Positions 12,671 through 57,707 are shown, counted from the stretch's first letter. The stretch is 64,000 nucleotides of DNA from an uncultured Gammaproteobacteria bacterium (GCA_964409875.1 CAYPEN010000002.1:338630-402629); one strand, 5' to 3'. The notes: generated by a model from the sequence alone, not told the origin. Translations and numbers: made by a program.

Positions 12671-13213
12671 ATGGACAACAACCAACCAGAAATTGTGCAA
12701 CAACAATCAATTCCTGTCCCTCCGCCTGTTCCGCCCCCGGGAATACCGCCTTCCGGCAAGCAAAAAAAATTGCTACTTATTGTTGGTGTAATTATTGTAG
12801 TATTAGCTATTATTGCGGTATCTGTTGTCTTTTTCATTTCAAAGAAGACACCTGTGGTGGTTATTCCCTCGCCCACGCCATTTCCGACAACGGCTATCTC
12901 AACACCTACTACTAGCCCTACGTCAGCAAATCCAGCCATCGAACTCGTGCTTACAAAGGGGAAAGTTGTTAGTGTTCCAAATTCTCCACTCACTATTGTT
13001 TACAAAGGGCAATCGGCACCAAACCCTAAGTGTGTTGATTGTTCCACGACAACAAATATTGTTGTTACAAGCCAAAAAGTTGATCAAAAGTTAAGCTATG
13101 TTTGTGGAGGGATAGCGGGAACATGTACAGAGAAGCAGTCAGCCTATGGATATAATGTGACTCTTGTAAAAGTAGACGAAGCAATTGCAACCGTAAAAAT
13201 CCAAAAACAATGA
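12671..13213 (+). CDS. Single-pass membrane protein with Pro-rich N-terminus and small extracytoplasmic domain
   Basis: 180 aa. PPVPPPGIPPSG, then a TM helix (LLLIVGVIIVVLAIIAVSVVFFI), then a Thr/Pro-rich linker and a C-terminal domain with 3 Cys. Its stop overlaps the M4 protease start (ATGA). Confidence 0.5.
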   Translation: MDNNQPEIVQQQSIPVPPPVPPPGIPPSGKQKKLLLIVGVIIVVLAIIAVSVVFFISKKTPVVVIPSPTPFPTTAISTPTTSPTSANPAIELVLTKGKVVSVPNSPLTIVYKGQSAPNPKCVDCSTTTNIVVTSQKVDQKLSYVCGGIAGTCTEKQSAYGYNVTLVKVDEAIATVKIQKQ

Positions 13214-19687: not shown

Positions 19688-21133
19688 ATGAACTCTGCCC
19701 AGAAAGATGATAATGTTCCTCCTGCTGTAAATTCCGTCGTATCAAACAACAATCTCTCTTCAGAGCTTGAGCACGTTACTCAAGAGATGTATAAGAAAAA
19801 TGCGGAATTGTTCCATACCAATAAGACGCTCTCCCTACTTCAGAAAATAGAGGCAATTATTCTAAGTTCAGTTACCGATTTATGGCAAGTAGCGCAACAA
19901 GTTGCCGATGTTATTGCTTCGGAAGCCGAATTCAAGCGGGTATCAATTTTTATAATCAACGAGCAGGATGGATTGGTGAGACTTGCAGCTTCAAGCGGTG
20001 AGGCAGTAGCTCGGGCCGAGTTTTTAGTAAAAAAACAATTCCCGAGCCTTCGGATACCGCTTCATAACGAGACCAATCTTTTAGTAAGAGTCGCAAAAAC
20101 CGCACGTCTTCAGTATACCAATAACTATTTTGATATTCTGACACCCGAATTTACACCTCAAGAGGCAGCAATAATACAACAGACCCTTAACACAAAATCA
20201 ATATATGCACATCCATTAGTAATTCGTGGTGAGGTTATTGGGGTATTATCCATAAGTCTTGGCGAGACCACTCCGGACATATCGGATTATGAGCGTGACC
20301 TTATGGAGCGGCTAGCTGGAATTATAGGAATCGCGATTGATAATTCACTCTTGTATAAGGATATACAAGAGGCAAATGAAAAACTGAAACAGCTGGATAA
20401 ACTGAAAGACGAATTTGTTTCTCTTGCCTCTCACGAATTAAGAACTCCGATGACTGTTATTAAGTCTTACATCTGGATGTTATTGGAAGGAAAAGTTGGT
20501 GACCTTTCAGAAAAACAAAAATCATACTTAGAACGGACTTATACTTCTACCGACAGACTTATCAATATGGTCAATGACATGTTGAATATTTCGCGAATCG
20601 AGTCGGGTAGGCTTACGATAGAACCGAAGGCACTTTCTATGTCTTCCCTTATTCAGGAGGTTGTAGGCGAAATGCAAACAAGAGCCAGTGAGCAACAGCT
20701 TGCATTAGTGTTTGCATCTCCTCAAGGAGAAATGCCGGATGTTTTTGCTGACCCTGACAAAATAAAACAAGTTCTCATCAACCTTATAGGAAATTCTCTC
20801 AAATTTACACCTCAAGGAGGAAACATCACACTTATTTGTGAGCAAAAAGACGGATATATTGTTACTCATGTGAAAGATACCGGAAAAGGAATAAAGAGTG
20901 AGGATATGGATAAGTTATTTAAGAAATTCAATATGCTTGGAGGAAATTATCTGACAAAACAGGCAGGACAAGGTACCGGTCTAGGACTATACTTATCGAA
21001 ATCATTGATAGAATTACATAAAGGTCGCATTTGGGTATCATCAGCGGGCGAGGGGAAGGGAACAACATTCTCATTCTCACTTCCTATTATGCAAGCTATA
21101 CAGCTCCAGCAGGTTGAGCAAGATACAGCTTGA
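19688..21133 (+). CDS. Soluble sensor histidine kinase with N-terminal GAF-like domain
   Basis: H-box FVSLASHELRTPMTVIKSY, N-box NLIGNSLKFT, G-boxes DTGKGI and GTGLGL. No TM helices. Confidence 0.85.
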   Translation: MNSAQKDDNVPPAVNSVVSNNNLSSELEHVTQEMYKKNAELFHTNKTLSLLQKIEAIILSSVTDLWQVAQQVADVIASEAEFKRVSIFIINEQDGLVRLAASSGEAVARAEFLVKKQFPSLRIPLHNETNLLVRVAKTARLQYTNNYFDILTPEFTPQEAAIIQQTLNTKSIYAHPLVIRGEVIGVLSISLGETTPDISDYERDLMERLAGIIGIAIDNSLLYKDIQEANEKLKQLDKLKDEFVSLASHELRTPMTVIKSYIWMLLEGKVGDLSEKQKSYLERTYTSTDRLINMVNDMLNISRIESGRLTIEPKALSMSSLIQEVVGEMQTRASEQQLALVFASPQGEMPDVFADPDKIKQVLINLIGNSLKFTPQGGNITLICEQKDGYIVTHVKDTGKGIKSEDMDKLFKKFNMLGGNYLTKQAGQGTGLGLYLSKSLIELHKGRIWVSSAGEGKGTTFSFSLPIMQAIQLQQVEQDTA

Positions 21134-21485
21134 CTTCTTTTATTAAGTCCCCAGGGGTAATTTGACTTTTAATTAGATACCCGGTTCCTAAGAGAAGGGC
21201 TTCTTTGATTTCTTCCCCTTTATCAAGGTTAGTTAAAAATATAATGCTTTTATTGGGAACTTGCGGTTGAGGCATTTCTTTTGCTTTTTTTGCCACCTCA
21301 AGTCCGGATAACTTGGGCATAATAATGTCCAACAAGACTAAATCCCAGCCTCCTTGAGATAATTTTTGTAGCGCATCTTCTCCATCAACAGCAGTTGTAA
21401 CCTGATACCCTTCTGTTTTTAGAATGTCTGCGTATAGTTCACGCAAAAACTCATCATCTTCGGCGATCAATATCTTCTTTTCCAT
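21096..21485 (-). CDS. Single-domain response regulator (CheY-like receiver only)
   Basis: KILIAEDDEFLRELY ... DLVLLDIIMPKLSG ... receiver motifs, 129 aa, no output domain. Its 3' end overlaps the convergent kinase by 38 nt. Confidence 0.8.
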   Translation of the reverse strand: MEKKILIAEDDEFLRELYADILKTEGYQVTTAVDGEDALQKLSQGGWDLVLLDIIMPKLSGLEVAKKAKEMPQPQVPNKSIIFLTNLDKGEEIKEALLLGTGYLIKSQITPGDLIKEVKLYLAQPAGAV

Positions 21486-21536: not shown

Positions 21537-22028
21537 TTAACGTGTCACCGAAATTGTTTGTGACAACTCGGCTGCGGGTGCAGCGACAGTGATTCTACTA
21601 TCAGTTGTGCTTCTACCAATAGTATAATTTGTATTATAAGTGGCACCGCAGTTAGTGACAGGGCTTCCGTTATTGGTCAATGGATCAACCGGAAGTGCTG
21701 CCATATATTGTGAAGTTAATACCGCACAAAGGTCAGCGCGCGCTGCGATGCCTGCATCGTTTGTTATTGTACAGGGAGCGGCTGGTGTACAAGATACAGC
21801 AATACCCGGAGGAAGTGCGCCTTTGTTGTCTGCTGCATATTGCCCAACTGCATTCAGGATTGCATTAACATCGCTTGACCTCTTCGTATTGTTTGCTTGT
21901 GAGAATTGCCTTGCAGGGTTAATAGCGATAAGAGTGATTGCAAGAAGAACTGCAAGAATTCCGATAACTACCAACAACTCAATCAAAGTGAAACCTTTTT
22001 GGGATTTTCTGAGGTGGGCAAGCTTCAT
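21537..22028 (-). CDS. Type IV major pilin (prepilin with class III signal peptide)
   Basis: MKLAHLRKSQKG|FTLIELLVVIGILAVLLAITLIAINP cleavage/methylation motif, 163 aa. Paralogue of the adjacent gene. Confidence 0.8.
   Translation of the reverse strand: MKLAHLRKSQKGFTLIELLVVIGILAVLLAITLIAINPARQFSQANNTKRSSDVNAILNAVGQYAADNKGALPPGIAVSCTPAAPCTITNDAGIAARADLCAVLTSQYMAALPVDPLTNNGSPVTNCGATYNTNYTIGRSTTDSRITVAAPAAELSQTISVTR
21876..21956. repeat. 81-bp near-identical direct repeat, copy 1 (5' region of pilin gene)
   Basis: Matches 22356-22436 at 80/81 positions. The two copies are exactly 480 bp apart and cover the conserved prepilin N-terminal helix. Confidence 0.8.
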
Positions 22029-22031
22029 AAA

Positions 22032-22505
22032 TTAGCGGGTAACCGTAATTGTTTGACCAAGCTCTGCTGCAGGAGCAGTTACAGTGATTCTATTATCAGA
22101 TGCTGAACGAACTACAGTGTAGTTGGTATTATAATTTGCAGTGCAGTCAGTGATAGGAGTTCCGTTATTAGTCAATGGATCAACAGGAAGCGCAGCCATA
22201 TATTGAGTGACAAGTGCAGCGCAAATATCTGCATCGTTGGCGGGTGTTCCACTCTTTTGAATCGTAAGTGCTGATGTTGTTATTCCTGCTGGAAGCGTGC
22301 CCTTGTTATCGGCTGCATATTGACCGATAGCATTTAAGATTGCATTTACATCAGATGACCTCTTCGTATTGTTTGCTTGCGAGAATTGCCTTGCAGGGTT
22401 AATAGCGATAAGAGTGATTGCAAGAAGAACTGCAAGGATACCAATGACTACAAGAAGCTCGATGAGAGTGAAACCTTTTTGATTTTTCAACTGGGCAGTT
22501 TTCAT
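22032..22505 (-). CDS. Type IV major pilin, tandem paralogue
   Basis: MKTAQLKNQKG|FTLIELLVVIGILAVLLAITLIAINP. Start placed at the MKTAQ Met; the ORF track extends 7 codons further upstream. Confidence 0.8.
   Translation of the reverse strand: MKTAQLKNQKGFTLIELLVVIGILAVLLAITLIAINPARQFSQANNTKRSSDVNAILNAIGQYAADNKGTLPAGITTSALTIQKSGTPANDADICAALVTQYMAALPVDPLTNNGTPITDCTANYNTNYTVVRSASDNRITVTAPAAELGQTITVTR
22356..22436. repeat. 81-bp near-identical direct repeat, copy 2
   Basis: See copy 1; a single mismatch (t/c at 21900 vs 22380). Confidence 0.8.
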
Positions 22506-22633
22506 ATCTGTATCTATCATAATCATAATTGTTTTTTTGTGTCAAGACCCAATTTAAGAGAATTACAAATGAAAAGTATACTGAAAATTTGAGGTTAAAA
22601 TACCAAAAAAGCGTCTTTTGAAGAAATATTCTA

Positions 22634-23341
22634 CTATTTCATGTTAAGTAGCATAAATCCTAAGATAGCAAATAAGATAATAAAAACTCCTATCATGGCA
22701 AACAATCTGATGTTGCTCTTTTTTTGTTGTGGTTCTTTTTTTGCACTTGTCTGTTGAGAGGAGGGTGGTCTGTCTTTCTCAAGAGTAAGCATTGATATCT
22801 GCTTGTAGTTGCCAGTCTTTCTTAAGAATTGCATAGCATTATCAACGGTTAAGTTCTGAATAAGCTCTTTGTCATTTCCAAGCATATTGTAGGGAATAAT
22901 CATTTCAAAGTTAAATCCGGCTTTCTCAAAACTCACCTTCAATTCTTGGAAGAGATCTTCATTGAAGCCAATAACTTTTACCCCTTTTTCTATGGGGTAA
23001 TTTTTTGACATCGTACTGTCAAATGGGATAGTATCAACAAATTTTCTTACGGCATCCTCCTGTTCCTCGGCCGGCAAGCCGGTTATTTCCTTTTCGAAAG
23101 TAATATTGGGAGAGAGGATTATTGTAATTAATGCAGGAGTAATTCGGTATTGCTCGATAAAATTTTTCACCTGCCCAAGAATTGAGGCTCCATTGATTAC
23201 ATCCATATCTTTTACCGAAGTTTCAAGGAATGCCATACTTATAACTGTAGGTAAACCGTTCTCAAAAAAGTAGAACCCGTTCCTATCCAGGTAAAGTAAT
23301 GCCGGTTGTTTTTTTGCGAATTCCATCAGATCTCCTTCCAA
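22634..23341 (-). CDS. Hypothetical pilus-locus protein with C-terminal TM anchor (tail-anchored)
   Basis: 235 aa. Soluble N-terminal domain, a Gln/Ser/Lys-rich linker, then one TM helix at the extreme C-terminus (LFAMIGVFIILFAILGFMLL). Lies inside the pilus operon; function unknown. Confidence 0.45.
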   Translation of the reverse strand: MEGDLMEFAKKQPALLYLDRNGFYFFENGLPTVISMAFLETSVKDMDVINGASILGQVKNFIEQYRITPALITIILSPNITFEKEITGLPAEEQEDAVRKFVDTIPFDSTMSKNYPIEKGVKVIGFNEDLFQELKVSFEKAGFNFEMIIPYNMLGNDKELIQNLTVDNAMQFLRKTGNYKQISMLTLEKDRPPSSQQTSAKKEPQQKKSNIRLFAMIGVFIILFAILGFMLLNMK

Positions 23342-23709
23342 GAAGTTGCGGTTAGAGTATTGTTGCTCGTATCAACGATTACCTGAATAGTTCTTGTAAA
23401 GTTATTCAATGTTCCTTTTGATAGTATCGTTTTTGGGTTAGTTCCGGTAATCGTAATGACTGCTTGTCCACTTCCGACCGTCAACGTCTCGCCCGTATAA
23501 TTCGGGTCTCTTAATAATTTAATCATAGCAGTTTCGGCACCACTTTCTGCAATATCCAGAGAGTTCGCTCCTTGATATATTTTATCTGTCCCCTTAGAAC
23601 TGTTGATGACAAGCGCAATTGATGCGGTCGTAACCACTATCGCAATTATCATATATGTCAACAAGACAATAAGCGTTTGGCCTTTTTGTTTGTGGAATGA
23701 ATTTTTCAT
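23326..23709 (-). CDS. Minor pilin, PilX-like N-terminus
   Basis: MKNSFHKQKGQTLIVLLTYMIIAIVVTTASIAL resembles PilX_N-type hydrophobic N-termini (no Glu at +5). 127 aa. Confidence 0.5.
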   Translation of the reverse strand: MKNSFHKQKGQTLIVLLTYMIIAIVVTTASIALVINSSKGTDKIYQGANSLDIAESGAETAMIKLLRDPNYTGETLTVGSGQAVITITGTNPKTILSKGTLNNFTRTIQVIVDTSNNTLTATSWKEI

Positions 23710-24200
23710 CTGAGTCCTGCGGTTGTTTGGAATATTTGTTGATCTGAAATTCCTCTTGTGGTGACGTTCCCTGAAACCGTAAAGTTAATTCTGACGGTGT
23801 CTTTTGCGCTTGGGCTTCCCACTTTAGTAAAAAGCAGGTTCGAAACCGATGACCCTTCCCCATTCAATACATAAGAACCTGTGGGGTCTGTTACTACAAT
23901 GTTGTTGTTGGTCAACGAATACGTGTAATTTTGTCCACCTATCACAAGTTTCATCGTTGCAGATGTACTCCCAAAAACTGAAGGTTCTGTCACTTGAGAA
24001 GCACGTCCTACATCGTAAATAAACCGTGAGTAAATATATCTCCCGTCATCTGCCACATTTGATGTATTTTTAGAACCCAATTGATTGTCAATAATTGTTG
24101 TAAATATATCCGTAAAGATGAGCACCAAAACAGTAAGAAGCCCCATATATATGAGAAGTTCGACCAGTGTGAATCCTCCTTGTTTTTTTGACTGTTTCAT
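23706..24200 (-). CDS. Minor (pseudo)pilin with prepilin-type cleavage/methylation motif
   Basis: MKQSKKQGG|FTLVELLIYMGLLTVLVLIF, 164 aa. Confidence 0.7.
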   Translation of the reverse strand: MKQSKKQGGFTLVELLIYMGLLTVLVLIFTDIFTTIIDNQLGSKNTSNVADDGRYIYSRFIYDVGRASQVTEPSVFGSTSATMKLVIGGQNYTYSLTNNNIVVTDPTGSYVLNGEGSSVSNLLFTKVGSPSAKDTVRINFTVSGNVTTRGISDQQIFQTTAGLR

Positions 24201-27163
24201 TATGGTGAGTAATTGATGTTTGCATCAAGAATCGTGGGAGTTACATTGAAATCGGTAGTTGAGAGAAATGCCTTATATCTTACGCATTGGGCGGGGTTTT
24301 GAAAACCGGCAATACCCGTGAGTGGTATTGCACCGCCGCTCGAAGGGAAAAACGTGTTTGCGGTACCGTCTGGTCCTACATACACGTAGGAGGCATTAGT
24401 GCAGGAACCATTTACAGGCATAGTTGCGGCGACTTGAAATTGAAGCGTACTGTTTGCAGGGACTGTTGTGGTTGTAGAAAGTCTGTTGAGTGCTGCAACA
24501 CTGCCGAGGTCTTGCGGAGCAGACTCATACGTTCCTGTATCAAGATAGGTTCCGTCAGGTCCACCTTGGATAATCTTGAGCTCGTTTGCACCGGTGTTTG
24601 ATACAAGGTACGCGAATTTATCGTTATCTGCTTCGGTGACTGAGGCAAGGTCTGAGAAGCCCTGGTTAAAATCAAGGCTGCCGCAATATGTTGGAGAGGA
24701 CTCATTACTGATATTGATTACTTGGTATTCAGAGGCATTATTGCTGTTTGAGATTCCGTCTTTTCCAACAATAATTGCCCGCGAACCGTTGAATACGGTT
24801 AGTGAGCGTCGCGGATAGAGTTCAGCATTGGCGCCGCTTCCATAGTAATATCCGCTTGTTGCTCCACTCGAAGGAGTACCGGTTAAGAATTTAGGTGCAG
24901 ACTTGTTGGATGTGTCAAGAATGTAAAATTGCCAGCTGTCAGGAACACCATCATTGTTTGCATCCACAGTTCCATTGGAAGAAATATAGGCGCGTGTTGC
25001 ATCAGGGCTTGCAAAAACTGAATTGGCCGTTTCTTGCGTGTTCGCATTTGAATTGAAGTCAAGCGAACTTATTCTTTTCCATCCTGCATTGCCGCTTGCA
25101 ATAGTCCCGCAGGTAGTATTACTTACAGCAGGACTTGTGCTACCTGATGGCACACTGGACACATTTGCGATATCAAATTCCGGGTCGGTTCCGGCTCCTA
25201 CAGCAACATACACATACGTGTTGGCTCCAACTTTCACAGGATAGATATCGTTGTCCGCATAAATTTGGGTGTTTCCACCATCCACGCATGCGGTTTGTCC
25301 TGCAGATTCTGAACCCCAATTGGTGCCAGTGCTCCCGGCTGCGTACTTGCGAATCTTGCTTGTTGTTGCATTACAATCATATCCATCAAGCTCTATACGG
25401 CAGCCTACCATATCAAGTCCATTGGAAGGCGTTTTGCTGTCAATATTGCTTAGGTCAAATGTATAAAGAAATCCGCCTGAAATGGCGTATCCCTTGTCAT
25501 CAAGAACAGCTATTGAAGCAGCACCGGCACCATAAGGGGCTTGGTCACTTGTTGTAAGAGTGCCTCCACTGAAGTGGACTTTTACTGCAACCCAGTCAAG
25601 AGAAAATGTTCGTGATGTAGTACTTGCAACATCTATTACACGTACTCGAAAGTTGGCATCAGAAAAATCAGAATTGCTCCACGTCCTTCCCCAATTATCT
25701 GATGCGCTCCCGAGGGTATATGTTGCATTTGAAGTTGTAAGATTGCCTGTCGATTGTGCGCTTGTCCATGTAGTGCCTCCATCCCACGACAGTTGAACAC
25801 ATATCTTGGGTGTGCCCGTCGTGCTATCCGTCTTTCCGTCAATGCGGACCTCAATTCCATCAATTGTTCCGCCGGTCGGAAGGGAAATTCCGTAATTATA
25901 GAATCTGTGTCTATCTTTATCAGAACCCGTGCAATTTGTTCCGGTTCCGTTCCCGCTATTGGTGTCTGTTGCATACGAATTGTTGGAGGAATAGGCACGG
26001 GTTGCATTCGTTTCGTAGCCGTTTCCGTCTCCTCCGGAATCGGCAGCATTTGCGGTTGGACTCAAAAAACCAGTGTCGAGTCCGGTACCCGGCTGGTAAA
26101 TTTTTGTATCAAAATACGTCCAGTATTTATATATCTTATTAACGTAGTCCTGATACTCGCCATTATTTGTGTTGTCATTGGAGGGGTCGTTGTCATCAAC
26201 AAGGACTGCAATAACTTCGTGGTCCGGTTTTGTCGTTGCGATAAGAGCATAAAGTTTTCCGGAACTCGATTTGTAATACTTTACCGCGTTCGTAATGAAA
26301 CTATTATCCAATCCTGGCGTTGAGGGAACCCATCCAGGGTTGCTGTATTTTGTCGCATCAAGCGTGAAAGTTCCCCTCAGTGTTGGGACAGGAGGGTCGG
26401 TATTGGCTGTCACTTTTACATGGGCAAGTTTGTACGAATTTGTTGTATTAGGAGAAATTGCGACAAACACATCGTTAGGTATATTAATGCTTTGTGCGCT
26501 GGCGGTTGCGGATACTGCCACCGGAGGACCATCAGGTAGGGTGATTGTGGCGCTTGAAAAACTCGGTGAGCACCATTTCCCTTTGGTGTTAGGCGCAAGA
26601 GTAATCTCCCCTCCAGACGAATTGGTAACCGATGTATCGGAGAGTGTACCGGCGTTGAAATCGGCTTCAGTTGTTTGTGTTTTTACAGCGTTTTGTAAGT
26701 AGCGCGTGACGTATATGGTCGAATCAACAGAAGAAGCGTAAGGTTGTCCCCATGTGACTTGGATATATACCTTTTTGGTAGAAGGATCAAATGTTCCACC
26801 GTTGTCAACAATTGCCCCGTTGCTATCTCTATACACATCGCTTACCGTGATTGTTCTGGTCAAGCCGTTTACCGTTTCACTTCCCGAGGCAAACGCCCAG
26901 TTGTTTCCTGAGATCAGCGGATGGTATGTGCCATTAACAGAGAAGAGTGACCACCCTTGCCCACGGACATTTCGTACAACTTCTTCTGCCTCTTTCATAA
27001 GAGCTACTGCTTGGACCCGCTGTCCTTGCTGGGCCTTGCCCTGTTTTGATGAGAACAGTCCCGTTAAAAGAGCAGGGAGCATAATTGCAGTGATTGCTAT
27101 CGCCAAAAGCATCTCTACGAGTAGCTGTCCTCTTTGGTTAGTCGATTTGGATAATCGTTCCAT
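24200..27163 (-). CDS. Giant pilin-like protein: prepilin-type N-terminus fused to ~950-aa Ser/Thr/Asn/Gly-rich extracellular region (tip-adhesin candidate)
   Basis: N-terminus MERLSKSTNQRGQ|LLVEMLLAIAITAIMLPALL has G at -1 and E at +5. The remaining ~950 aa are Ser/Thr/Asn/Gly/Asp-rich with many predicted beta segments. Start chosen at the second Met; the ORF track starts 11 codons earlier (27196). Confidence 0.65.
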   Translation of the reverse strand: MERLSKSTNQRGQLLVEMLLAIAITAIMLPALLTGLFSSKQGKAQQGQRVQAVALMKEAEEVVRNVRGQGWSLFSVNGTYHPLISGNNWAFASGSETVNGLTRTITVSDVYRDSNGAIVDNGGTFDPSTKKVYIQVTWGQPYASSVDSTIYVTRYLQNAVKTQTTEADFNAGTLSDTSVTNSSGGEITLAPNTKGKWCSPSFSSATITLPDGPPVAVSATASAQSINIPNDVFVAISPNTTNSYKLAHVKVTANTDPPVPTLRGTFTLDATKYSNPGWVPSTPGLDNSFITNAVKYYKSSSGKLYALIATTKPDHEVIAVLVDDNDPSNDNTNNGEYQDYVNKIYKYWTYFDTKIYQPGTGLDTGFLSPTANAADSGGDGNGYETNATRAYSSNNSYATDTNSGNGTGTNCTGSDKDRHRFYNYGISLPTGGTIDGIEVRIDGKTDSTTGTPKICVQLSWDGGTTWTSAQSTGNLTTSNATYTLGSASDNWGRTWSNSDFSDANFRVRVIDVASTTSRTFSLDWVAVKVHFSGGTLTTSDQAPYGAGAASIAVLDDKGYAISGGFLYTFDLSNIDSKTPSNGLDMVGCRIELDGYDCNATTSKIRKYAAGSTGTNWGSESAGQTACVDGGNTQIYADNDIYPVKVGANTYVYVAVGAGTDPEFDIANVSSVPSGSTSPAVSNTTCGTIASGNAGWKRISSLDFNSNANTQETANSVFASPDATRAYISSNGTVDANNDGVPDSWQFYILDTSNKSAPKFLTGTPSSGATSGYYYGSGANAELYPRRSLTVFNGSRAIIVGKDGISNSNNASEYQVINISNESSPTYCGSLDFNQGFSDLASVTEADNDKFAYLVSNTGANELKIIQGGPDGTYLDTGTYESAPQDLGSVAALNRLSTTTTVPANSTLQFQVAATMPVNGSCTNASYVYVGPDGTANTFFPSSGGAIPLTGIAGFQNPAQCVRYKAFLSTTDFNVTPTILDANINYSP

Positions 27164-27617
27164 ATTTATTAAAGTGTAATGTTTTTGTCTTTCCACTTGA
27201 TGTATTTGTTAGGGTAATTGTGTTTTGTCCTTGCACGAATCCAACTATTTCTCCGCTTTCAGAGGCAAAAAGAATTGTCGTGTTGGGGAATGTAGAGCTT
27301 AGAGTGTAACCGCTTTCAACCGGTACGGAAAAATTAGTCGTGTCTGCGGGATTGTAACTTGCTCCATGAAAGAGAACATATTGGTTAGAAAGAATTTTTA
27401 CCCCATAATTATCTGGAGTTCCTCTTCCTTCTGTATCGCCTACCATAGCCTTTATCTGTTGGTTCTTAAGATCTGAAGTTAAAACTGAAGCGGTTGAACT
27501 GTTTGTTGAAATGACCCGTACATTAAAAATACTAATAAAAGTTATTGAAAAAAGTAATCCAAGGATTCCGACAACGATAAGAAGTTCAACGAGTGTCAGT
27601 CCTTTATTTGAGGACAT
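27138..27617 (-). CDS. Pilin-like protein (prepilin-type N-terminus)
   Basis: MSSNKG|LTLVELLIVVGILGLLFSITFISIF, 159 aa from this Met. The ORF track's longer 207-aa form adds a non-hydrophobic leader that is unlikely to be real. Confidence 0.65.
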   Translation of the reverse strand: MSSNKGLTLVELLIVVGILGLLFSITFISIFNVRVISTNSSTASVLTSDLKNQQIKAMVGDTEGRGTPDNYGVKILSNQYVLFHGASYNPADTTNFSVPVESGYTLSSTFPNTTILFASESGEIVGFVQGQNTITLTNTSSGKTKTLHFNKYGTIIQID

Positions 27618-27717: not shown

Positions 27718-28788
27718 TTAGTGTCCACCAACCTGTCCGATAAGCCCATAAATTGGGGCAATTATTGCGAGCATCATGCCTCCCACCAATACTCCGACAA
27801 ATATCAGCATTATTGGTTCAAGAAGTGTTGTAAGGGTCTTAAGCGTTTTATCGACCTGATAATCAAGATAATCGGCTACATCCTGCATTGATTTATCCAA
27901 AGAACCGCTTTTTTCACCGGCTTCCGTTATTTTTATCATGATGTTTGGAAAAATATGTTTCGCGAATTTAAGACCATCCGACAATTCGCTCCCTCCAAGT
28001 ACTACCTCTTTACAATGTGAAATCGCATCTGCAACTTCTTTTTTTAAGACAACCTCTTGCGCCAATTCAAGTGCAGCGGCTATCGGAATACCGGCGTTGA
28101 GGAGGAGAAATAGGCTGCGTGAGAATCTGGTTAAGTCTATTTGTTTTGCAAGGGTTGAAACAAGGGGAAGCATAAATAGCGCATGAAGAAACGCACGCTT
28201 CTTTTCTCTATATAGGAAGAAGAGCCCTACGACAATCAATGCAATGCCAAGAATGACAAAAACGGTATACTTGGTAAGTAGTTGCGACATACCGATTAGG
28301 ATTTGGGTAGGAAGAGGAAGGGCGACGTTCAGTCTTAAGAAAACCCCCGAAATCTTCGGTACGACAACGACAAGAATCATGGTAAGAACACCAGCAAAGA
28401 CGAAAAAGATAAGAACAGGATAGGTAAGTGCGCCTTTTATTCTGTCCATAAATTCTGCATCTTTCTTAATTGAGGTTTTAAGGTCGGTAAGCGTTACATC
28501 AAGTGTGCCTGCTTCTTCAGATGCTTTAATAAGATTTACCGTGATTTTGTCAAATACTTTCGGGAACCGGGCAAATGCATCTGAAACATGGCTTCCTTGG
28601 GATAGGTCTGCTTTGAGGCTTTCAAGCAGCTTTTTTTGGCTTCCTTTTGCATCCTCAAGCAGTGAATCGACCACTTCAAGGATGGGAATTCCTGCAGATA
28701 GCATGGTAGCAAGGTTACTCACAAGCCCCAATTTCTCGGCGGTTGAGAGTCTTAAAGATTGTGGATTTGAGTTGTTAAATAAGGCCAT
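27718..28788 (-). CDS. pilC: Type IV pilus assembly platform protein PilC (GspF/T2SS-F family)
   Basis: Two T2SSF repeats, three TM segments, 356 aa. Sits immediately downstream of pilB. Confidence 0.85.
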   Translation of the reverse strand: MALFNNSNPQSLRLSTAEKLGLVSNLATMLSAGIPILEVVDSLLEDAKGSQKKLLESLKADLSQGSHVSDAFARFPKVFDKITVNLIKASEEAGTLDVTLTDLKTSIKKDAEFMDRIKGALTYPVLIFFVFAGVLTMILVVVVPKISGVFLRLNVALPLPTQILIGMSQLLTKYTVFVILGIALIVVGLFFLYREKKRAFLHALFMLPLVSTLAKQIDLTRFSRSLFLLLNAGIPIAAALELAQEVVLKKEVADAISHCKEVVLGGSELSDGLKFAKHIFPNIMIKITEAGEKSGSLDKSMQDVADYLDYQVDKTLKTLTTLLEPIMLIFVGVLVGGMMLAIIAPIYGLIGQVGGH

Positions 28789-28794: not shown

Positions 28795-30483
28795 TTATAG
28801 AGATTCGACTTTAGTGACTCTTAATACTTCTTCAAGCGTGGTAACTCCACGCGAAACCTTATTGAGCCCATCATTGAGCATAGTAGTCATGCCTTCGTCT
28901 ATCGCCCGTTTTGCGATTTGGTCAGAGTCATTTTTTGCGGTTATAAGGTTGCGGATTTCCTTTGTTACCTCAAGTACTTCAAACAATCCCAGACGGCCGG
29001 TATATCCTGTCGAATGGCAGATTTTGCATCCTTTTCCGCGGTAAAGCCTGATATTCTCCTTCTCGCCGAAATGCTTGGTAATTATTGAGGAGGGGAGATT
29101 TTTTGTTAGATCAGAGCGTAAAATGTCATACGAAACTTTACACATATCACATATTTTTCGGATAAGACGCTGGCCGATGATAACGTTAACGGTTGATGCA
29201 ACAAGGAACGGTTCGACTTTCATATCAATAAGTCTGGGAAGTGCGGTTGCTGCATCATTTGTGTGGAGGGTTGAAAGAACTAGATGTCCGGTGAGAGCAG
29301 CGTTTACTGCTATACCTGCTGTTTCGCTGTCACGTATTTCTCCGACAAAAACAACATTCGGGTCTTGTCTCAAAATTGAGCGAAGACCGTTTGCAAATGT
29401 AAGGTCGGTTTTTGTATTCACATTTATTTGGTTCACTCCCTTAATACGGTATTCGACTGGGTCTTCAATCGTTGTAATGTTTTTTTCCCGGGTATTTAAA
29501 ATTTTCAGTATGGCGTATATTGAAGTTGTTTTTCCACTTCCGGTAGGACCTGTTGAGAGCACCATCCCGTACGACTTGCTGTATGCTGCAGTTACCTTCT
29601 TCAGGTCTTGTTCGCTCATCCCAAGATCAATAAGCGAGAACTGGCGAAAATGCGAGGCAAGGAGTCTTAATACAGCTTTTTCTCCATCTGCGATGGGAAG
29701 AATTGAAACGCGGATATCTAAATTCTCTTCATCAAGTTTTATCCGCATTTTTCCATCTTGAGGTGCGAGGTGTTCATCGGTTCTTAGTTTTGAAAGAATT
29801 TTAATTCTTGAAATGATGCGTTCATGGAAATTTTTTGGAAAATAAAGCACGTCATGCAAGATTCCGTCTATTCTAAATCGTACCAGTGAATCTTTTTCCT
29901 CCGGTTCTATATGAATATCCGAAACCTTGTCCTGGTAGCCGAATTCAACCAAAAGATTTACTATCTTTTCAATAGGAGCTGCGTCGGTTACTTTGGAAAC
30001 ATCCGTGATGCCCAACTCTTTCTGTAGAAGTTGCTCAAAGGACTTTTGCAAATCCCTCTTGTAAATTCTTAAAATATTGTCAATATCCCGCTCAGTTGTA
30101 AGGTAGGGGAGTACTTTAAGTCCGGTTTTTTTGCTTATTGCGGTTAAGACTTCAATGTTGCGCGGGTCGACAGTTGCAACCTTCAGTCCGTCCTTCGACT
30201 TTTCAAAAGGAATAACCTTGTGTTTACGTGCAATTTTTTCAGGTACGATGCGGAAAACATCTTCTGGTATGGTAAGCTTTGAGAGGATAATAAAAGGAAT
30301 ATGGAGAAAATCAGCAATAAGGATTCCCAGGTTTTCATCCGAGACGACGTCTTTTTCAATAAGAGCATCCACCAGGCTTACATTCGAATTTTTTGAGAAT
30401 TCCGTGAGCTCTTGTAAACTTTGCTCCGTTGCGAGTCCTGTTTTAAGGACGAGTGCTTTTATTTGATCGTCTGATAAAATCAT
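28795..30483 (-). CDS. pilB: Type IV pilus assembly ATPase PilB (GspE family)
   Basis: N-terminal GSPII_E_N-like domain. Walker A GPTGSGKTT, Asp box, Walker B and His box. Cys motif CDMCK...CKIC. 562 aa. Confidence 0.9.
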   Translation of the reverse strand: MILSDDQIKALVLKTGLATEQSLQELTEFSKNSNVSLVDALIEKDVVSDENLGILIADFLHIPFIILSKLTIPEDVFRIVPEKIARKHKVIPFEKSKDGLKVATVDPRNIEVLTAISKKTGLKVLPYLTTERDIDNILRIYKRDLQKSFEQLLQKELGITDVSKVTDAAPIEKIVNLLVEFGYQDKVSDIHIEPEEKDSLVRFRIDGILHDVLYFPKNFHERIISRIKILSKLRTDEHLAPQDGKMRIKLDEENLDIRVSILPIADGEKAVLRLLASHFRQFSLIDLGMSEQDLKKVTAAYSKSYGMVLSTGPTGSGKTTSIYAILKILNTREKNITTIEDPVEYRIKGVNQINVNTKTDLTFANGLRSILRQDPNVVFVGEIRDSETAGIAVNAALTGHLVLSTLHTNDAATALPRLIDMKVEPFLVASTVNVIIGQRLIRKICDMCKVSYDILRSDLTKNLPSSIITKHFGEKENIRLYRGKGCKICHSTGYTGRLGLFEVLEVTKEIRNLITAKNDSDQIAKRAIDEGMTTMLNDGLNKVSRGVTTLEEVLRVTKVESL

Positions 30484-30502: not shown

Positions 30503-30883
30503 TCAATCGTGTCTTTTGGACTGGTCGATTGTTTGATTTACTTTCTTCAATAAATTGTCAAAATCAAAAAAAGTCTTATTGACATAGTCTGTTGCACCAA
30601 GCCGTTTTGCCTTCTCAATATCGGCTGTTTGTCCCAAAGTCGAGAATATAATAACCGGAATACTTTCCAAACTCGGATGCTTAGATATTTCCGTAAGTAC
30701 CTCAAACCCATCCTTGTTAGGCATAATAAGGTCGAGCAACATAAGATCAGGTTTTATAACCATAATTTTTTGCAACGCCTCATTTCCATCTCCTGCCACT
30801 TCGACTTGAAAGCCCGCCTCTGTAAGCTTACGAGAATAGAAATTTTGAAAAAACAAGTCGTCTTCGGCAAGCAATATCCTCAT
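30503..30883 (-). CDS. Single-domain response regulator (CheY-like), PilG/PilH-like position
   Basis: MRILLAEDDLFFQNFY...DLMLLDLIMPNKDGFEVL...K. 126 aa, no output domain. Confidence 0.8.
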   Translation of the reverse strand: MRILLAEDDLFFQNFYSRKLTEAGFQVEVAGDGNEALQKIMVIKPDLMLLDLIMPNKDGFEVLTEISKHPSLESIPVIIFSTLGQTADIEKAKRLGATDYVNKTFFDFDNLLKKVNQTIDQSKRHD

Positions 30884-31248
30884 AAGACGTTATCTCCAAT
30901 CTTTTCCGATTCCAACTGTTTTAACTGTTTTTTTACCTCATCAAGAGATTTTTTTATTTGTTCTATAGCCTCGTTATTTGTCTGAATTATGGTTCCTTCA
31001 GGCCTGATGTAGGAAATAATCTCGGAACATATCGTGGCAATTTTTTGATATCCCATCATTTGGGACGAGCCTTTTAATGAATGAACATGTCGGAAAATCT
31101 CTTTTGCATCAGGAAATTTGTCAGAGCTAAGAAGGAGTTCTAGCACTTGAATATGCTCTTGAGCCGTTTTTAAAAACAACATATTATAACCAGCAATATC
31201 CCTGGGTGTCATGAGGTAATCATACAATATTTTTGAACTGTCTGACAA
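30880..31248 (-). CDS. Histidine phosphotransfer (HPt) domain protein
   Basis: FRHVHSLKGSSQMMG matches the HPt signature (H-x-x-KG). 122 aa, overlapping the downstream receiver gene by 4 nt. Confidence 0.6.
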   Translation of the reverse strand: MSDSSKILYDYLMTPRDIAGYNMLFLKTAQEHIQVLELLLSSDKFPDAKEIFRHVHSLKGSSQMMGYQKIATICSEIISYIRPEGTIIQTNNEAIEQIKKSLDEVKKQLKQLESEKIGDNVL

Positions 31249-31327: not shown

Positions 31328-31675
31328 ATGATAGCTTTTGTCTCTTATCCATTCTATCTCCTCTCTTTCTGGTACAAGGACGTTGTAGTCGGGTTATTTG
31401 GATTTTTTGCCGCGTTTAATATGTATGTTGCCCGGCTTTTGTCGTATCCGAGTCTTCTAAAAACCTTTTTTAAACCATTGAAAAATGAATATCGGGATGG
31501 GTTGGTGCTTTTTTCCATTTGCTTTGGGGTGATTATAAAAAGCGTATTGGTTGCTGTTAACTCGTTGATTCTTTTATTTATGTTACTTGTTGAGGTTCTT
31601 ATCCTGCTTTTTCTTGTTGTTTTACCTGTAGTGTTCTTAGTTTTGTTGTTAAGTCCGAGAGTAATATTGCGATGA
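31328..31675 (+). CDS. Small hydrophobic ORF translationally coupled (ATGA) to the ClpC paralogue; possibly a frameshifted N-terminal part of it
   Basis: 115 aa and strongly hydrophobic. Its stop TGA overlaps the ATG of the next gene, whose own first 60 residues are also hydrophobic. Confidence 0.35.
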   Translation: MIAFVSYPFYLLSFWYKDVVVGLFGFFAAFNMYVARLLSYPSLLKTFFKPLKNEYRDGLVLFSICFGVIIKSVLVAVNSLILLFMLLVEVLILLFLVVLPVVFLVLLLSPRVILR

Positions 31676-34041
31676 AAGACAACCATTATTTTCTCTATTA
31701 TTTTTTCGATAACCCGTTTATACGGTGGGCGCGGGTTATTGTATTTTTCTTCATAGGGATATTCGTCTATTTCAATCTTGAGAGCACCAGGTTTGTCATC
31801 CAAATACTGCCGGTTTATTTTTTCCTACTCCTTCAGGAATTTTTTATCCATTTTAAGCTTGAGAATAGTAGCCCGAAGAAAAAAATAACCGATAATTATA
31901 GGCATATCATTGAATGCGTCGATTATAAAACGCGGGTACTTCTTGAGCGGCATAGTGTAATTGAGGATACCATCAAAGAAATTTCCAATTTTGCAGAGGT
32001 GAAATACTTTAAGAAGCGGTTACTTTTTAATAATGTACCGTTAACAAAGGAAATCTCCGAAAAAGAAGCCCTTGAAAGAGTAAAAGATGTTGTTAAAAGC
32101 GTGAACGGAAAGTATATACATGCAATTGACATCTTTGTTTCATATCTTCTTATTCTTGATGAAAAAGAGAAATTTCTATTCGATAAGGAACTGTTTGAGA
32201 AAGACATCTTAACAGTCCTTTCATGGACAAGGCGCGAATTTCGAATTGATAGGAAGCACCATTATCATCTGACATTTACCGGAAGTGGGGCTTTCGACTT
32301 TTTCATATACGGATGGAGTACCCAAATTGCACGCGTAGCTCTCAATTTTACAAAAGAGGCGCTTATGCGGAAACGTTCCGAGCCGATAGGAAGGGAAAGC
32401 GAGTACGATCTTTTGGTGACGGCGCTCTCAAAAAATTCTTCAAGTAATGCACTTATTGTTGGGCCCGCAGGAGTTGGGAAAAGTGCGTTAGTCATGCAGT
32501 TTGCCGTCGATTCCAATCAAGGAGTATTGCCCCATGTCGTCTCCAACAAAACGGTTTTTCAACTCTTCCCCGAACGGCTTATGTCAGGAGTAGAATACCA
32601 GGGGGATTTGGAGGAACGGTTTGTGAGTGTTTTTTCGGAGCTGGCCCATGCCGGAAATATTATCGTCTACATTCCAAATATAGAAAACATTTTCGGAGGC
32701 GGAGGATTCAATATGGATATTTCAGGAGCGCTTATCGACTACCTTAACAGCAGCAGAATAAAAATAATAGGAAGCACAACCGAGAGTGCATATAAAGAAT
32801 TCGTTCTATCAAGACTTGAGATAAAAGAGCTCTTTGATACGGTTGAGATGAGAGAGCCGGATGAAGATACTGCGCTTTTTATGGTGATGGAAAAGGCGAA
32901 GGAATTAGAGTTGGTAAATCACGTATGGGTCTCATACGACGCTGTAAAAGAGTCATGTGTGTTGGCGCATTCGTATGAGACAGAAGGGATAGTGCTTCCG
33001 GGAAGTGCCGTGCATCTATTGGATGATGTTATCGCATATTGCCTGACTCACGGGAAGAAGACGGTAGATAAAAAAGAAGTACAGGCGTATGTTGCAGAAA
33101 AAAAACATATCGTTCTTGATGCGCCAACAGAGGAGGAGAGCGAAAAACTACTACAACTAGAAGCAGAAATTCACAATGAGATAGTTTCTCAAAATGAGGC
33201 AGTGACGGCTATTGCCAACGCAATGCGACGAGTACGTGCTGGGATGAAAAATGAGAACAAGCCCATTGCGTCTTTCCTCTTTTTGGGGCCGACAGGAGTC
33301 GGAAAGACTAAAACTGCAAAAGCTCTTGCCAAATCATACTTCGGGAATGAGGAGGCAATGATACGGCTTGATATGAGTGAATATCAATTGCCCGATTCTG
33401 TGGACAGATTTTTAGGAAAGCAAGGAACATATAGTGAAACAGTTCTTGATAAGGTTTCTAATAATCCTTTTTCCCTCCTGCTTCTGGACGAATTTGAAAA
33501 AGCGTATCCCCATGTTTTAGACCTCTTCTTGCAGGTCTTTGACGAAGGAAGGCTTACCGATAATTCCGGTAGAACCGTGTCTTTTGCAAATTGCATCATA
33601 ATTGCAACATCGAATGCGGGAAGCGAGTTTATCAGGGAGGCGGAAAATAGCGGCGCATCGAATGATAATTTGAAGAAAGCGCTTATTGAGAAAGTGCAGG
33701 AGGGGGGTATATTTAGGCCGGAGCTTATCAACCGTTTTGACGACGTTATTGTCTTCAAGCCCCTCACAGAAGCCGATGTGGCTAATGTTTCAAAACTCCT
33801 CTTGCAAAAAGTCATCGATGAAGCGGCTAAAAAACAGATAACACTTTCGTACGATGAGGCGGTGCCATTCTTTATAGCAAAACACGCGTATAGCATCGAG
33901 TTCGGAGCCCGCAATATCAAGCGTTTCATTGAACAATCGGTTGAGAATCAACTATCAAAGCTCATACTTTCCGGTACTCTCTCCCATGCCAGTACTGCAA
34001 AAATACTGGTGGAAGAAAACGCGCTTGTCATTAAAGTATGA
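31672..34041 (+). CDS. ClpC-like AAA+ protein paralogue with hydrophobic N-terminus and degenerate NBD1 Walker B
   Basis: NBD1 Walker A GPAGVGKSA, but the expected hhhhDE is IVYIPNIENIF (no acidic pair). NBD2 is intact: Walker A GPTGVGKTKTAK, Walker B LLLLDEFEKAYP, sensor 2 GARNIKR. The N-terminal ~60 aa are membrane-like. Confidence 0.75.
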   Translation: MKDNHYFLYYFFDNPFIRWARVIVFFFIGIFVYFNLESTRFVIQILPVYFFLLLQEFFIHFKLENSSPKKKITDNYRHIIECVDYKTRVLLERHSVIEDTIKEISNFAEVKYFKKRLLFNNVPLTKEISEKEALERVKDVVKSVNGKYIHAIDIFVSYLLILDEKEKFLFDKELFEKDILTVLSWTRREFRIDRKHHYHLTFTGSGAFDFFIYGWSTQIARVALNFTKEALMRKRSEPIGRESEYDLLVTALSKNSSSNALIVGPAGVGKSALVMQFAVDSNQGVLPHVVSNKTVFQLFPERLMSGVEYQGDLEERFVSVFSELAHAGNIIVYIPNIENIFGGGGFNMDISGALIDYLNSSRIKIIGSTTESAYKEFVLSRLEIKELFDTVEMREPDEDTALFMVMEKAKELELVNHVWVSYDAVKESCVLAHSYETEGIVLPGSAVHLLDDVIAYCLTHGKKTVDKKEVQAYVAEKKHIVLDAPTEEESEKLLQLEAEIHNEIVSQNEAVTAIANAMRRVRAGMKNENKPIASFLFLGPTGVGKTKTAKALAKSYFGNEEAMIRLDMSEYQLPDSVDRFLGKQGTYSETVLDKVSNNPFSLLLLDEFEKAYPHVLDLFLQVFDEGRLTDNSGRTVSFANCIIIATSNAGSEFIREAENSGASNDNLKKALIEKVQEGGIFRPELINRFDDVIVFKPLTEADVANVSKLLLQKVIDEAAKKQITLSYDEAVPFFIAKHAYSIEFGARNIKRFIEQSVENQLSKLILSGTLSHASTAKILVEENALVIKV

Positions 34042-46361: not shown

Positions 46362-46379
46362 GTGTTTTTTTGTGGGAAG

Positions 46380-47915: not shown

Positions 47916-47942
47916 ATGCTATCCGTTAACAGGAAAGATGTA

Positions 47943-49154: not shown

Positions 49155-49155
49155 A

Positions 49156-49851: not shown

Positions 49852-49853
49852 TA

Positions 49854-54074: not shown

Positions 54075-54182
54075 GTTTGATATAGGAACGCGTAGGGTGC
54101 TTTTGTTAGCACTTCGACAGAAACACCCTACAAGTTCCAACAAAAATTAACAAATAGATTTAAGAGGTAAGAATTAAGATTT

Positions 54183-56453: not shown

Positions 56454-56516
56454 TTCTATGTCAGTAGTAACACACAATATTGAAATTAAAAAGCGAATAT
56501 TAACTGTTAGCTTATT

Positions 56517-57638: not shown

Positions 57639-57658
57639 CCGGTAGCTCTTTTAACCAT

Positions 57659-57679: not shown

Positions 57680-57707
57680 GATGGTTTGAAGGTGGTAGAA
57701 TACGGGT

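Follow-up and report, generated by a model that had tools for sequence, protein, structure and literature searches.

A giant type IV pilin of about 990 residues, a candidate tip-displayed modular adhesin of Levybacteria-type bacteria

The concept of modular pilins, in which a pilin module is fused to modules that are not specific to type IV pili (T4P), and the modelling of such subunits at the pilus tip have already been published (Raynaud 2021, PMC8179133; Shahin 2023, PMC9934059). In S. sanguinis, they are represented by PilB with a vWA module, PilC with Ig and lectin modules, and the PilABC tip complex (PMC8179133, PMC9934059). In Nanosynbacter lyticus TM7x, PilX2 is a pilin with a heptabladed RCC1-type beta-propeller required for efficient host binding (PMC11623550), and PilX1 carries a beta-jelly-roll, L-type-lectin-like (PMC11623550 / PMC12206443). 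Besides, a purely bioinformatic catalogue lists LVIVD pilins in the CPR (IPR013211; Raynaud et al. 2021), among them a Candidatus Falkowbacteria protein of 860 residues. In diderm type IVa pili, PilY1/PilC acts as a large beta-propeller tip adhesin via a minor-pilin complex, and enlarged minor pilins at filament tips are also known as GspK/PilX (the 'K' of HIJK), ComZ and CofB/TcpB.

Below we report a giant pilin encoded in a stretch of 64,000 nucleotides (the window), together with its T4P operon (Table 1). Overall, we consider with a probability of about 60% that a Microgenomates/Levybacteria-type (Patescibacteria/CPR) bacterium here encodes a modular minor type IV pilin, displayed at the tip as a glycan adhesin. 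The protein joins a pilin module to modules that are not T4P-specific, and is in this sense a modular pilin.

Table 1. Features of the giant pilin and its operon, with positions counted from the first letter of the window
Feature	Position	Strand	Basis
PilB assembly ATPase	28795-30483	(-)	T2SSE 3e-127 and MshEN
PilC platform protein	27718-28788	(-)	T2SSF 2e-47
159-aa minor pilin (G|L..E5), upstream partner of giant pilin	27138..27617	(-)	PF07963 E=4e-6
Giant modular minor pilin, 987 aa	24200..27163	(-)	likely start ATG at 27163
Class III signal region, residues 1-24	27092..27163	(-)	read from sequence; orthologue conservation
Pilin module, residues ~13-165	26669..27127	(-)	DSSP of AF2 model; family profile against PDB
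Beta-propeller, first part, residues ~201-357	26093..26564	(-)	four-strand groups in AF2 model; Foldseek
Inserted Asp-box jelly-roll, CBM-like, residues ~358-535	25559..26092	(-)	AF2 domain model; orthologue comparison
Beta-propeller, remainder, residues ~536-880	24524..25558	(-)	AF2 model; Foldseek
C-terminal beta-sandwich, residues ~881-987	24203..24523	(-)	AF2 strands
164-aa minor pilin (G|F..E5), downstream partner of giant pilin	23706..24200	(-)	PF07963 E=7.5e-7
127-aa minor pilin without Glu5 (KG|QTLIV...), candidate apical subunit	23326..23709	(-)	orthologues; synteny
235-aa protein with C-terminal TM segment, co-conserved	22634..23341	(-)	no family match
Two major pilin genes in tandem (164 and 163 aa; identity 75%)	21537..22526	(-)	PF07963 ~6e-10; GspG-like match

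The giant pilin shares with S. sanguinis PilB and PilC a class III signal with Glu5 and a short pilin module, after which come bulky non-pilin modules of putative ligand-binding function. In both cases the operon includes a small Glu5-less pilin, which in S. sanguinis is added first, and the T4P is of monoderm type without PilQ or PilY1, where bulk would force a tip position. However, the modules of the giant pilin show no sequence homology to those of PilB and PilC, its extension of ~800 aa is about twice as large, its head is nested (jelly-roll within propeller) rather than built as beads on a string, its operon has four minor pilins instead of three, and it is known from sequence and models alone. 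Like PilX1 and PilX2, it is a CPR/Patescibacteria minor pilin, the largest in its locus, with a non-canonical signal peptide and a propeller or lectin-like jelly-roll, and in TM7x glycans are implicated in the binding. TM7x nevertheless belongs to a different phylum, its PilX2 propeller is RCC1 while that of the giant pilin is LVIVD-like (as compared by description), and the two folds that TM7x splits between PilX2 and PilX1 are here united in one polypeptide. In the catalogued CPR LVIVD pilins, an LVIVD beta-propeller comes after a pilin N-terminus, as in the ~650-aa relatives of the giant pilin; unlike the catalogued pilins, the giant pilin no longer scores for LVIVD, has gained the Asp-box jelly-roll and keeps a C-terminal sandwich specific to its family.

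The first-pass annotation described the protein as functionally like PilY1/PilC-type adhesins. The functional logic is indeed the same, following the published modular-pilin model, but membership of the PilY1 family is rejected: PilY1 is a non-pilin with a Sec signal that docks on minor pilins by beta-strand addition, while the giant pilin has a pilin N-terminus, lacks the PilY1 propeller signature in Pfam (PF05567 / IPR008707), and PilY1 is outside its top 50 PDB fold matches. As for the other enlarged minor pilins, the extra domain of GspK and ComZ is inserted into the pilin fold, that of ComZ is a DNA-binding beta-solenoid, and CofB/TcpB form trimers in type IVb pili. GspK/PilX is without Glu5, whereas the giant pilin keeps it in 42 of 42 orthologues and is thus not a 'K' cap; it is the neighbouring 127-aa pilin that has no Glu5.

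The genes for PilB, PilC, the 159-aa pilin, the giant pilin and the 164-aa and 127-aa pilins are all on the minus strand, and their stop and start codons overlap, the start of the 164-aa pilin with the stop of the giant one. This context, with the giant gene between a 159-aa pilin and two minor pilins downstream of pilB-pilC, is as described before. In about 60 GTDB species loci the genes follow one another as pilin159-giant-pilin164-pilin127-p235-major pilin, in most cases right behind pilB-pilC; the 159-aa pilin is syntenic in nearly all related loci, the 164-aa and 127-aa pilins also show synteny, and the co-conserved 235-aa protein is possibly an assembly or alignment component. Among 882 homologues of the giant pilin, the best 120 are full-length, and a full-length copy is found in the same operon of ~60 species-level genomes, which answers the call of the first-pass annotation for a conservation check.

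The ORF claimed at 24200-27196 exists on the minus strand and gives 998 aa from a GTG start, while the ATG at 27163 gives 987 aa and exactly the N-terminus reported earlier. Also in agreement with the earlier description of about 950 residues rich in S/T/N/G/D and free of TM segments, T+S+G+N+D make up 46% of the residues, and the sole hydrophobic segment is at residues ~11-40, where alone the Kyte-Doolittle value exceeds 1.6 (maximum elsewhere 1.05). Across 40 orthologues ten Cys never vary, in keeping with an extracellular protein; an enrichment of MdbA-like oxidoreductases has been reported for CPR genomes (PMC6744442).

The N-terminus consists of the leader MERLSKSTNQRG followed by QLLVEMLLAIAITAIMLPALL, with predicted cleavage at G12|Q13 and Glu17 at +5. 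The leader is short, polar/basic and ends in Gly, then about 20 hydrophobic residues follow, as class III signals have, and the hydrophobic alpha1N helix begins within residues 1-24. G at -1 and E at +5, as stated in the first-pass annotation, are conserved in all 42 orthologues, and G12 and E17 are nearly invariant in the alignment (n=40); its cleavage bar, however, was drawn after Q13 and is one residue off, since these two positions place the cut between G12 and Q13. The term 'bona fide' prepilin is too strong for this single copy, which has no match to Pfam N_methyl (PF07963) at E<=0.1, carries Gln at +1 instead of the usual Phe or Met, and in NCBIfam gives a weak ComGE match (E=0.0019) under its cut-off. 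At the level of the family the term holds, as the N-termini of 17 of 29 relatives match PF07963 and the family N-terminal profile finds pilin N-termini as its best PDB matches. Judged from the residues, the signal is of class III (prepilin) but divergent, and prepilin peptidase would cleave it after Gly12. In the AF2 model, DSSP assigns to the pilin module a long alpha1 helix at 13-68 (H13-37, H40-68; predicted length 55 residues) and an antiparallel beta-sheet with strands at 78-163; the predicted pilin fold is canonical.

The same N-terminus could also belong to a cell-surface protein outside the filament, either uncleaved or cleaved yet held in the membrane like a pseudopilin stub, with the propeller and CBM-like head acting at the cell envelope and not at the pilus tip. 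The missing N_methyl match and the Gln at +1 speak for such a protein and count against a modular pilin, and so does the absence of a prepilin peptidase gene (PilD, Peptidase_A24) from the window and from 80 related loci, PilD being reported as widespread in CPR (PMC6744442). In TM7x, PilX1 and PilX2 are likewise not predicted PilD substrates, which again speaks for a surface protein and against the modular pilin, and thin pili are still made without PilX2, in line with a surface protein (PMC11623550). The absence of a PilT gene from the window likewise counts against the modular pilin. On the other hand, the conservation of G-1 and E+5 in all 42 orthologues is difficult to account for unless the protein is cleaved and packs helix against helix, the giant gene is always among three minor pilins and translationally coupled, and the pilin fold of the model is canonical. 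We therefore regard a surface protein outside the filament as unlikely.

Beyond the pilin module, the first-pass annotation suggested searching a predicted structure for beta-propeller or lectin-like domains, and the model holds both a beta-propeller and a lectin/CBM-like jelly-roll. The propeller, preceded by the invariant W197-C198, has ~7-8 blades of four-strand units in the AlphaFold model, and the top Foldseek matches of the giant pilin are beta-propellers. Pfam LVIVD (PF08309) is matched by 19 of 45 relatives with a best E of 4e-13, these being the shorter ones (~650 aa), while the giant pilin of the window itself gives 0 matches. The ~650-aa relatives match both LVIVD and N_methyl, and all of them have the C-terminal beta-sandwich, in which C921 and C960 are invariant and the chain ends in ...NYSP. 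The propeller remainder is the most conserved part among orthologues, and the effector modules have mean pairwise identities of 63-69% against 50% for the pilin module, which is not the pattern expected of a host-specific receptor binder.

A pilin bearing an enzyme is conceivable, in which the propeller would be a sialidase-like glycosidase or another hydrolase that the CBM-like module directs, at the pilus tip, to the host or matrix polysaccharide it degrades. The sialidases 1kit, 6eks and 8feb are among the Foldseek matches, an Asp-box motif is present, CBMs are commonly joined to catalytic domains, and pilins with peptidase modules were listed by Raynaud et al. (PMC8179133). However, the global TM to these sialidases is 0.21-0.29, no sialidase profile matches over the propeller, and the single Asp-box lies in the jelly-roll insert, by which a sialidase/BNR propeller, marked by repeated Asp-boxes in six blades and an Arg triad, is rejected. 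Across the wider family (45 sequences) the central propeller has no invariant residue, and therefore no conserved catalytic set. LVIVD propellers are not known to act as enzymes. An enzyme at this position is accordingly rather improbable.

The insert, of about 175 residues, sits in one propeller loop and contains the Asp-box SWDGGTTW, which matches the Asp-boxes of sialidases. Residues 358-535 form a compact module, with a predicted pLDDT of 95 when modelled alone. Its fold matches are dominated by CBM4/16/22/32/36, BcsB and lectins, at a modest level (TM 0.4-0.5, identity 10-20%; TM 0.36-0.48 for CBM4-2, CBM16, CBM22 and CBM32); no Pfam model including CBM_4_9 (PF02018) is matched even at E<=10, and no sugar-binding residues are identified in it. 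In ~14 orthologues (~820 aa) this loop is empty, with an 8-aa linker in its place, and in one orthologue (L040) it bears Pfam CBM_4_9 with 26.6 bits against a cut-off of 25.9. Three states of the loop are thus seen: empty, Asp-box jelly-roll and CBM_4_9. In addition, the module recurs in Kelch, subtilase, Big_5 and RHS proteins of other phyla, is 54-69% identical between CPR, Chloroflexota, Nitrospirota and Acidobacteriota, often occurs in tandem, and has no Pfam/NCBIfam model. Since the loop bears either a CBM-like module or, in orthologues, a bona fide CBM_4_9, a glycan is the most likely ligand. Tentatively, and with more doubt than confidence, the propeller may be seen as a fixed scaffold with a plug-in loop for exchangeable glycan-binding cassettes, and the insert as an undescribed, widely exchanged carbohydrate-binding family.

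The slot with CBM_4_9 in orthologues also speaks against a DNA-receptor minor pilin for natural transformation, comparable to ComP/FimT or to the large beta-solenoid pilin ComZ of Thermus. In favour of it, DNA uptake has been proposed for CPR type IV pili (PMC6744442), a related genome (L002) has DprA ~6 kb downstream, and a tip pilin with a large domain is already known in ComZ (PMC8179133). The mature giant pilin is, however, strongly acidic (pI 4.6, net charge -27), as is each extra module, the modules resemble CBMs and propellers rather than DNA-binding folds, and competence is kept in TM7x T4P-2 pilin mutants (PMC11623550), so that a DNA receptor appears very improbable. Finally, the frameshift fusion of two genes by an assembly or sequencing error, raised in the first-pass annotation, is refuted and of negligible probability, since the identical 987-aa protein (P0001), including its gene model, occurs in independent assemblies (a 407-kb NCBI contig and Logan SRR11845634), more than 100 full-length orthologues of 965-1035 aa span 96-100% of the query, 40 of them align end to end with a mean column identity of 62%, ~60 species-level genomes have the same operon, the AF2 model is confident over the whole chain (pLDDT 82), and nothing in its favour was found: the ORF is a real, widely conserved type IV pilin of ~990 residues.

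For the modular tip pilin, the following course may be proposed. The class III signal anchor would insert the protein in the membrane, and after the putative cut behind Gly12 the alpha1 helix and small pilin sheet would let it assemble with the three small minor pilins of its operon into an initiation/tip complex resembling HIJK or S. sanguinis PilABC. Glu5 is present in 51 of 52 orthologues of the 159-aa pilin and 52 of 53 of the 164-aa pilin, but in 0 of 57 of the 127-aa pilin. For this reason the apical role probably falls to the 127-aa pilin rather than the giant, mirroring the HIJK and S. sanguinis PilABC complexes (cf. GspK/PilX, PilA; PMC9934059), and of the earlier wording 'tip or priming subunit' the priming part goes more probably to it. 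By analogy, the 127-aa pilin would come first, and the giant pilin, just beneath, would neutralise through its Glu5 the N-terminus of the subunit above. PilB and PilC would then polymerise major pilins below the complex, which for that reason would end at the distal tip, and the ~800-residue extension, unable to fit in the shaft, would project from it. The earlier argument that a pilin of this size is barred from the shaft and acts as a tip adhesin matches the published modular-pilin model, which experiments on TM7x PilX2 support in a CPR bacterium (PMC11623550); its tip position and adhesion we infer, the former from its size and the E5-less partner. The ligand-binding head would consist of the LVIVD-type beta-propeller, the C-terminal beta-sandwich and the Asp-box CBM-like jelly-roll in the propeller loop, most likely recognising a glycan on another cell or surface. 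The description as contact organelle of an obligate epibiont assumes such a lifestyle for an uncultured organism of Levybacteria type.

The giant pilin leaves the current picture of type IV pili unchanged, and carries the modular-pilin idea further, to a nested head of three modules that is about double the size of characterised examples. The insert points to an unannotated extracellular domain family common to many phyla. If the cassette idea is true, a swap would re-target the pilus tip, and the ligand of the Asp-box jelly-roll would define what Microgenomates attach to. Conserved across ~60 species, the giant pilin is the best candidate for the first-contact molecule of these uncultured Microgenomates/Levybacteria.

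The giant pilin occupies an uninterrupted minus-strand ORF (24200..27196), whose product has 998 aa if translation begins at a GTG and 987 aa if it begins at the ATG at 27163; the ATG gives the same N-terminus as the first-pass annotation. A protein called independently in the Logan assemblies of SRR11845634 and in a 407-kb NCBI contig is identical to the 987-aa product, and 40 full-length orthologues align with it, which rules out the frameshift or fusion artefact that had been named as a refuting condition. The presence of a giant pilin-like ORF in the pilus operon is thus confirmed, and the description of the ORF and its setting is correct apart from one slip in the cleavage position. The protein has membrane-grade hydrophobicity at residues ~11-40 only, and T, S, G, N and D together make up 46% of its residues. 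In the minor-pilin block the stop and start codons of neighbouring genes overlap, and the block is therefore one operon. The two major pilins share identical N-terminal 60 residues, while most related loci have a single copy. No tRNA or Rfam RNA is found in the 64-kb window. The 373-aa protein among the surface proteins looks like a sortase substrate because an LPATG motif near its C-terminus is followed by a hydrophobic tail and a basic residue.

Features of the pilus operon and other genes of the window
Feature	Position	Strand	Remark
ClpB-like AAA+ protein	9771-12659		
Secreted M4 (thermolysin-type) peptidase	13210-15195		
Response regulator and histidine kinase	19688-21485		downstream of the major pilins
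Two tandem major pilins	21537-22526	-	75% identical
Sigma-70-like site	22545-22516		11/12 matches; just upstream of the tandem major pilins
235-aa protein (p235)		-	C-terminal TM segment
127-aa pilin-like protein	23326-23709	-	fourth in order
164-aa pilin		-	third in order
Giant pilin	24200-27163	-	second in order
Insert module of the giant	25559-26092		
159-aa pilin		-	first in order
PilB and PilC		-	Pfam T2SSE+MshEN and T2SSF
Hpt protein and response regulator	30503-31248	-	upstream of pilB
ClpB-like AAA+ protein	31672-34041		
MacB/HlyD and AcrB-type efflux cluster	43038-51113		
S/T/N-rich surface proteins	52791-58265	+	no Pfam matches; adjoin the sortase gene
373-aa protein	56517-57638		
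Sortase gene	57708-58265		

A word-indexed search returns 882 homologues of the giant, the best 120 of which are 802-1035 aa long with 54-100% identity and nearly all 96-100% query coverage; in their sources these are labelled as 'type II secretion system protein', 'PulG' or 'PilV family' of Patescibacteria, Microgenomates or Levybacteria. Conservation in related genomes, proposed earlier as a check, is borne out: with each GTDB species represented by one genome, a scan finds the giant at ~60 loci. The explicitly named records among them are Levyibacteriota, Woesebacteria, Shapirobacteria, Roizmanbacteria and Microgenomates, the taxonomy being read from explicitly CPR-named records only, since many of the other records evidently bear placeholder titles. 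Nearly all loci keep the gene order 159-aa pilin, giant, 164-aa pilin, 127-aa pilin, p235 and major pilin, with PilB and PilC directly upstream in most. Signalling genes (Hpt/response regulator and response regulator/histidine kinase) recur beside the operon in many related loci, as do a Pfam-less 269-aa membrane protein, a 94-aa protein, an LPG_synthase_C protein and an EamA transporter. One orthologue (locus L009) has an open frame of ~1160 aa from stop to stop, ~170 aa longer than the rest. Among the orthologues, mean pairwise identity (alignment A1) is 63-69% in the propeller and insert, 50% in the pilin module and 49% in the C-terminal sandwich. That the propeller and insert are better conserved than the pilin module and the sandwich points to a ligand that is itself conserved, and not to a receptor in an arms race. 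For a host-specificity determinant under diversifying selection one would expect the reverse, with the effector modules less conserved.

The N-terminus had been called a bona fide prepilin signal, which holds for the family, but the copy in the window is borderline when taken by itself: Pfam N_methyl gives no match at E<=0.1, the only NCBIfam match is a sub-threshold ComGE, and the +1 residue is Gln. Across the family the evidence for a signal is convincing: 40 full-length orthologues show near-invariant G12 and E17, and all 42 scorable orthologues from ~60 species-level genomes have the G-x4-E pattern, 35 of them with Gln at +1. Moreover, 17 of 29 diverse family N-termini match PF07963, and the best matches of the family profile in the PDB are pilin N-termini (geopilin, PilA, MshA and Thermus TTHA1219). 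In the AlphaFold2 model, a helix of 55 residues (13-68) packs on a beta-sheet (78-163), as in the pilin fold. The Gly at -1 and Glu at +5 of the first-pass annotation therefore stand, but its cleavage mark is misplaced, as these positions require a cut between G12 and Q13. Pfam scans of the ORFs in the window detect no prepilin peptidase, and no PilD turns up when all 81 sequences, the window and 80 related loci, are searched for the G.GD.K motif. Cleavage by a prepilin peptidase is therefore inferred, with support from the conserved motif and from the published wide occurrence of PilD in CPR (PMC6744442).

The full-length AlphaFold2 model of the giant (mean pLDDT 82, pTM 0.62) predicts, after the pilin module, ~7-8 four-strand groups at residues ~201-880, as estimated from the strand list; this region is broken at 358-535 and followed by a predicted C-terminal beta-sandwich (881-987). 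Among PDB and viral models, Foldseek retrieves beta-propellers (podovirus nozzle proteins, sialidases, DDB1 and WD40 proteins) with low global TM scores, and therefore only the fold class is informative. The propeller or lectin-like domains that had been proposed as a check are both predicted here, as a beta-propeller and a lectin/CBM-like jelly-roll insert. The best PDB/BFVD matches of the whole model are podovirus nozzle, tail tubular protein B and P22 gp10-type proteins, with E down to 7e-15; as TM is only 0.1-0.3, the similarity to nozzle or tail-tubular-B proteins is probably a generic resemblance between propellers rather than homology. By sequence, the whole giant has no direct match among solved structures and nothing usable in Pfam and NCBIfam, and family profiles match only pilin N-termini, a weak ROS1 propeller and Asp-box structures. 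An exhaustive profile search yields 9977 proteins at E<=0.001 in three groups: a few ~990-aa clusters, many ~650-aa pilins aligning to residues ~6-265 and ~700-987, and many unrelated proteins aligning to residues ~358-535 only. The ~650-aa relatives carry N_methyl and Pfam LVIVD repeats, the latter in 19 of 45 scanned; Raynaud et al. had already catalogued LVIVD-repeat (IPR013211) pilins in CPR bacteria (PMC8179133). All ten cysteines of the giant are invariant in 40 orthologues, and C198, C827, C921 and C960 in the wider family too, as would fit a protein that is extracellular and stabilised by disulfides; the predicted pairs are C198-C827, C411-C455, C588-C597 and C921-C960. In the central propeller no residue is invariant across the wider family, which argues against a conserved catalytic site.

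The three small neighbours of the giant behave like a core minor-pilin set. Glu5 is kept in 51 of 52 orthologues of the 159-aa pilin and in 52 of 53 of the 164-aa pilin, while the Pfam-less 127-aa pilin (KG|QTLIV...) has it in 0 of 57, with V, I, T, S, L or M there. At the apex of the HIJK complex (T2SS and T4aP) is the K subunit (GspK/PilX), which lacks Glu5. In S. sanguinis, the small PilA without Glu5 is added first, with the Glu5-bearing modular PilB and PilC below it and their modules capping the tip (PMC9934059). By the logic of these two systems, the 127-aa pilin is likely the initiator or apex of the tip complex, and the giant would take second or third place below it in the tip. This refines the first-pass reading of a tip or priming subunit: the tip is retained, by analogy, but the priming role would pass to the 127-aa pilin. 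Its interpretation as a whole is largely right, though imprecise on the cleavage site, the 'bona fide' signal, priming and the assumed obligate epibiont lifestyle. A GspK-type cap is rejected for the giant from the Glu5 pattern, and PilY1 family membership from the Pfam scan and the 50 best PDB fold matches. With a pI of 4.6 and a net charge of -27 the mature protein is acidic, which disfavours a DNA-receptor role.

The design of the giant is as a concept already established. A 'modular pilin' has been described as a pilin stalk with grafted ligand-binding modules, displayed at the tip with a PilY1-like function (PMC8179133), and S. sanguinis PilB and PilC have supplied its structural details (PMC9934059). 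TM7x, a CPR bacterium, has as the largest pilins in the respective loci PilX2 (beta-propeller) and PilX1 (lectin-like jelly-roll); of these, PilX2 is required for efficient host binding while dispensable for filament extrusion (PMC11623550). Unlike the characterised modular pilins, the giant has ~975 mature residues, a jelly-roll nested inside the propeller, a family-specific C-terminal sandwich and a cassette-like slot.

This slot is the loop that carries residues 358-535. In the ~820-aa orthologues (such as P0098 and P0123) these residues are absent and an 8-residue linker is in place; overall, the insert is present in 45 of 62 species loci, and ~14 loci have the linker only. Three loci (L040, L042 and L059) carry a different ~165-aa domain in the same loop (residues 357/536 of the window's giant), which in L040 is Pfam CBM_4_9 (E=8.5e-6, 26.6 bits, cut-off 25.9) and in L059 matches CBM_4_9 just below the cut-off, with Pro/Thr-rich linkers on either side. 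L037 has a divergent version. Since the loop may be empty or hold the Asp-box module or CBM_4_9, it appears to act as a slot for interchangeable CBM-type modules. The insert of the window matches no Pfam/NCBIfam model even at E<=10. It holds a classic Asp-box, SWDGGTTW, the source of the weak sialidase match. Modelled by itself (pLDDT 95), its best fold matches, at TM 0.36-0.48, are CBM4-2, CBM16, CBM22, CBM32 and CBM36, together with the BcsB carbohydrate-binding domain and the BC2L-C lectin domain. Elsewhere, secreted multidomain proteins that also have Kelch, subtilase, Big_5, RHS or P-domain parts contain the module in a single copy, in tandem or at the C-terminus, the last two arrangements being frequent, and one 3109-aa protein has up to 11 copies. 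These modules, at 54-69% identity, come from Anaerolineales, Nitrospirae, Acidobacteriota and other MAGs (loci L064-L080). The Asp-box jelly-roll thus looks like an undescribed, widely shared extracellular module. The best case for glycan binding by the head of the giant is this swap-in CBM slot, although the argument is an indirect one; the slot and the unannotated Asp-box jelly-roll family are of most interest here.
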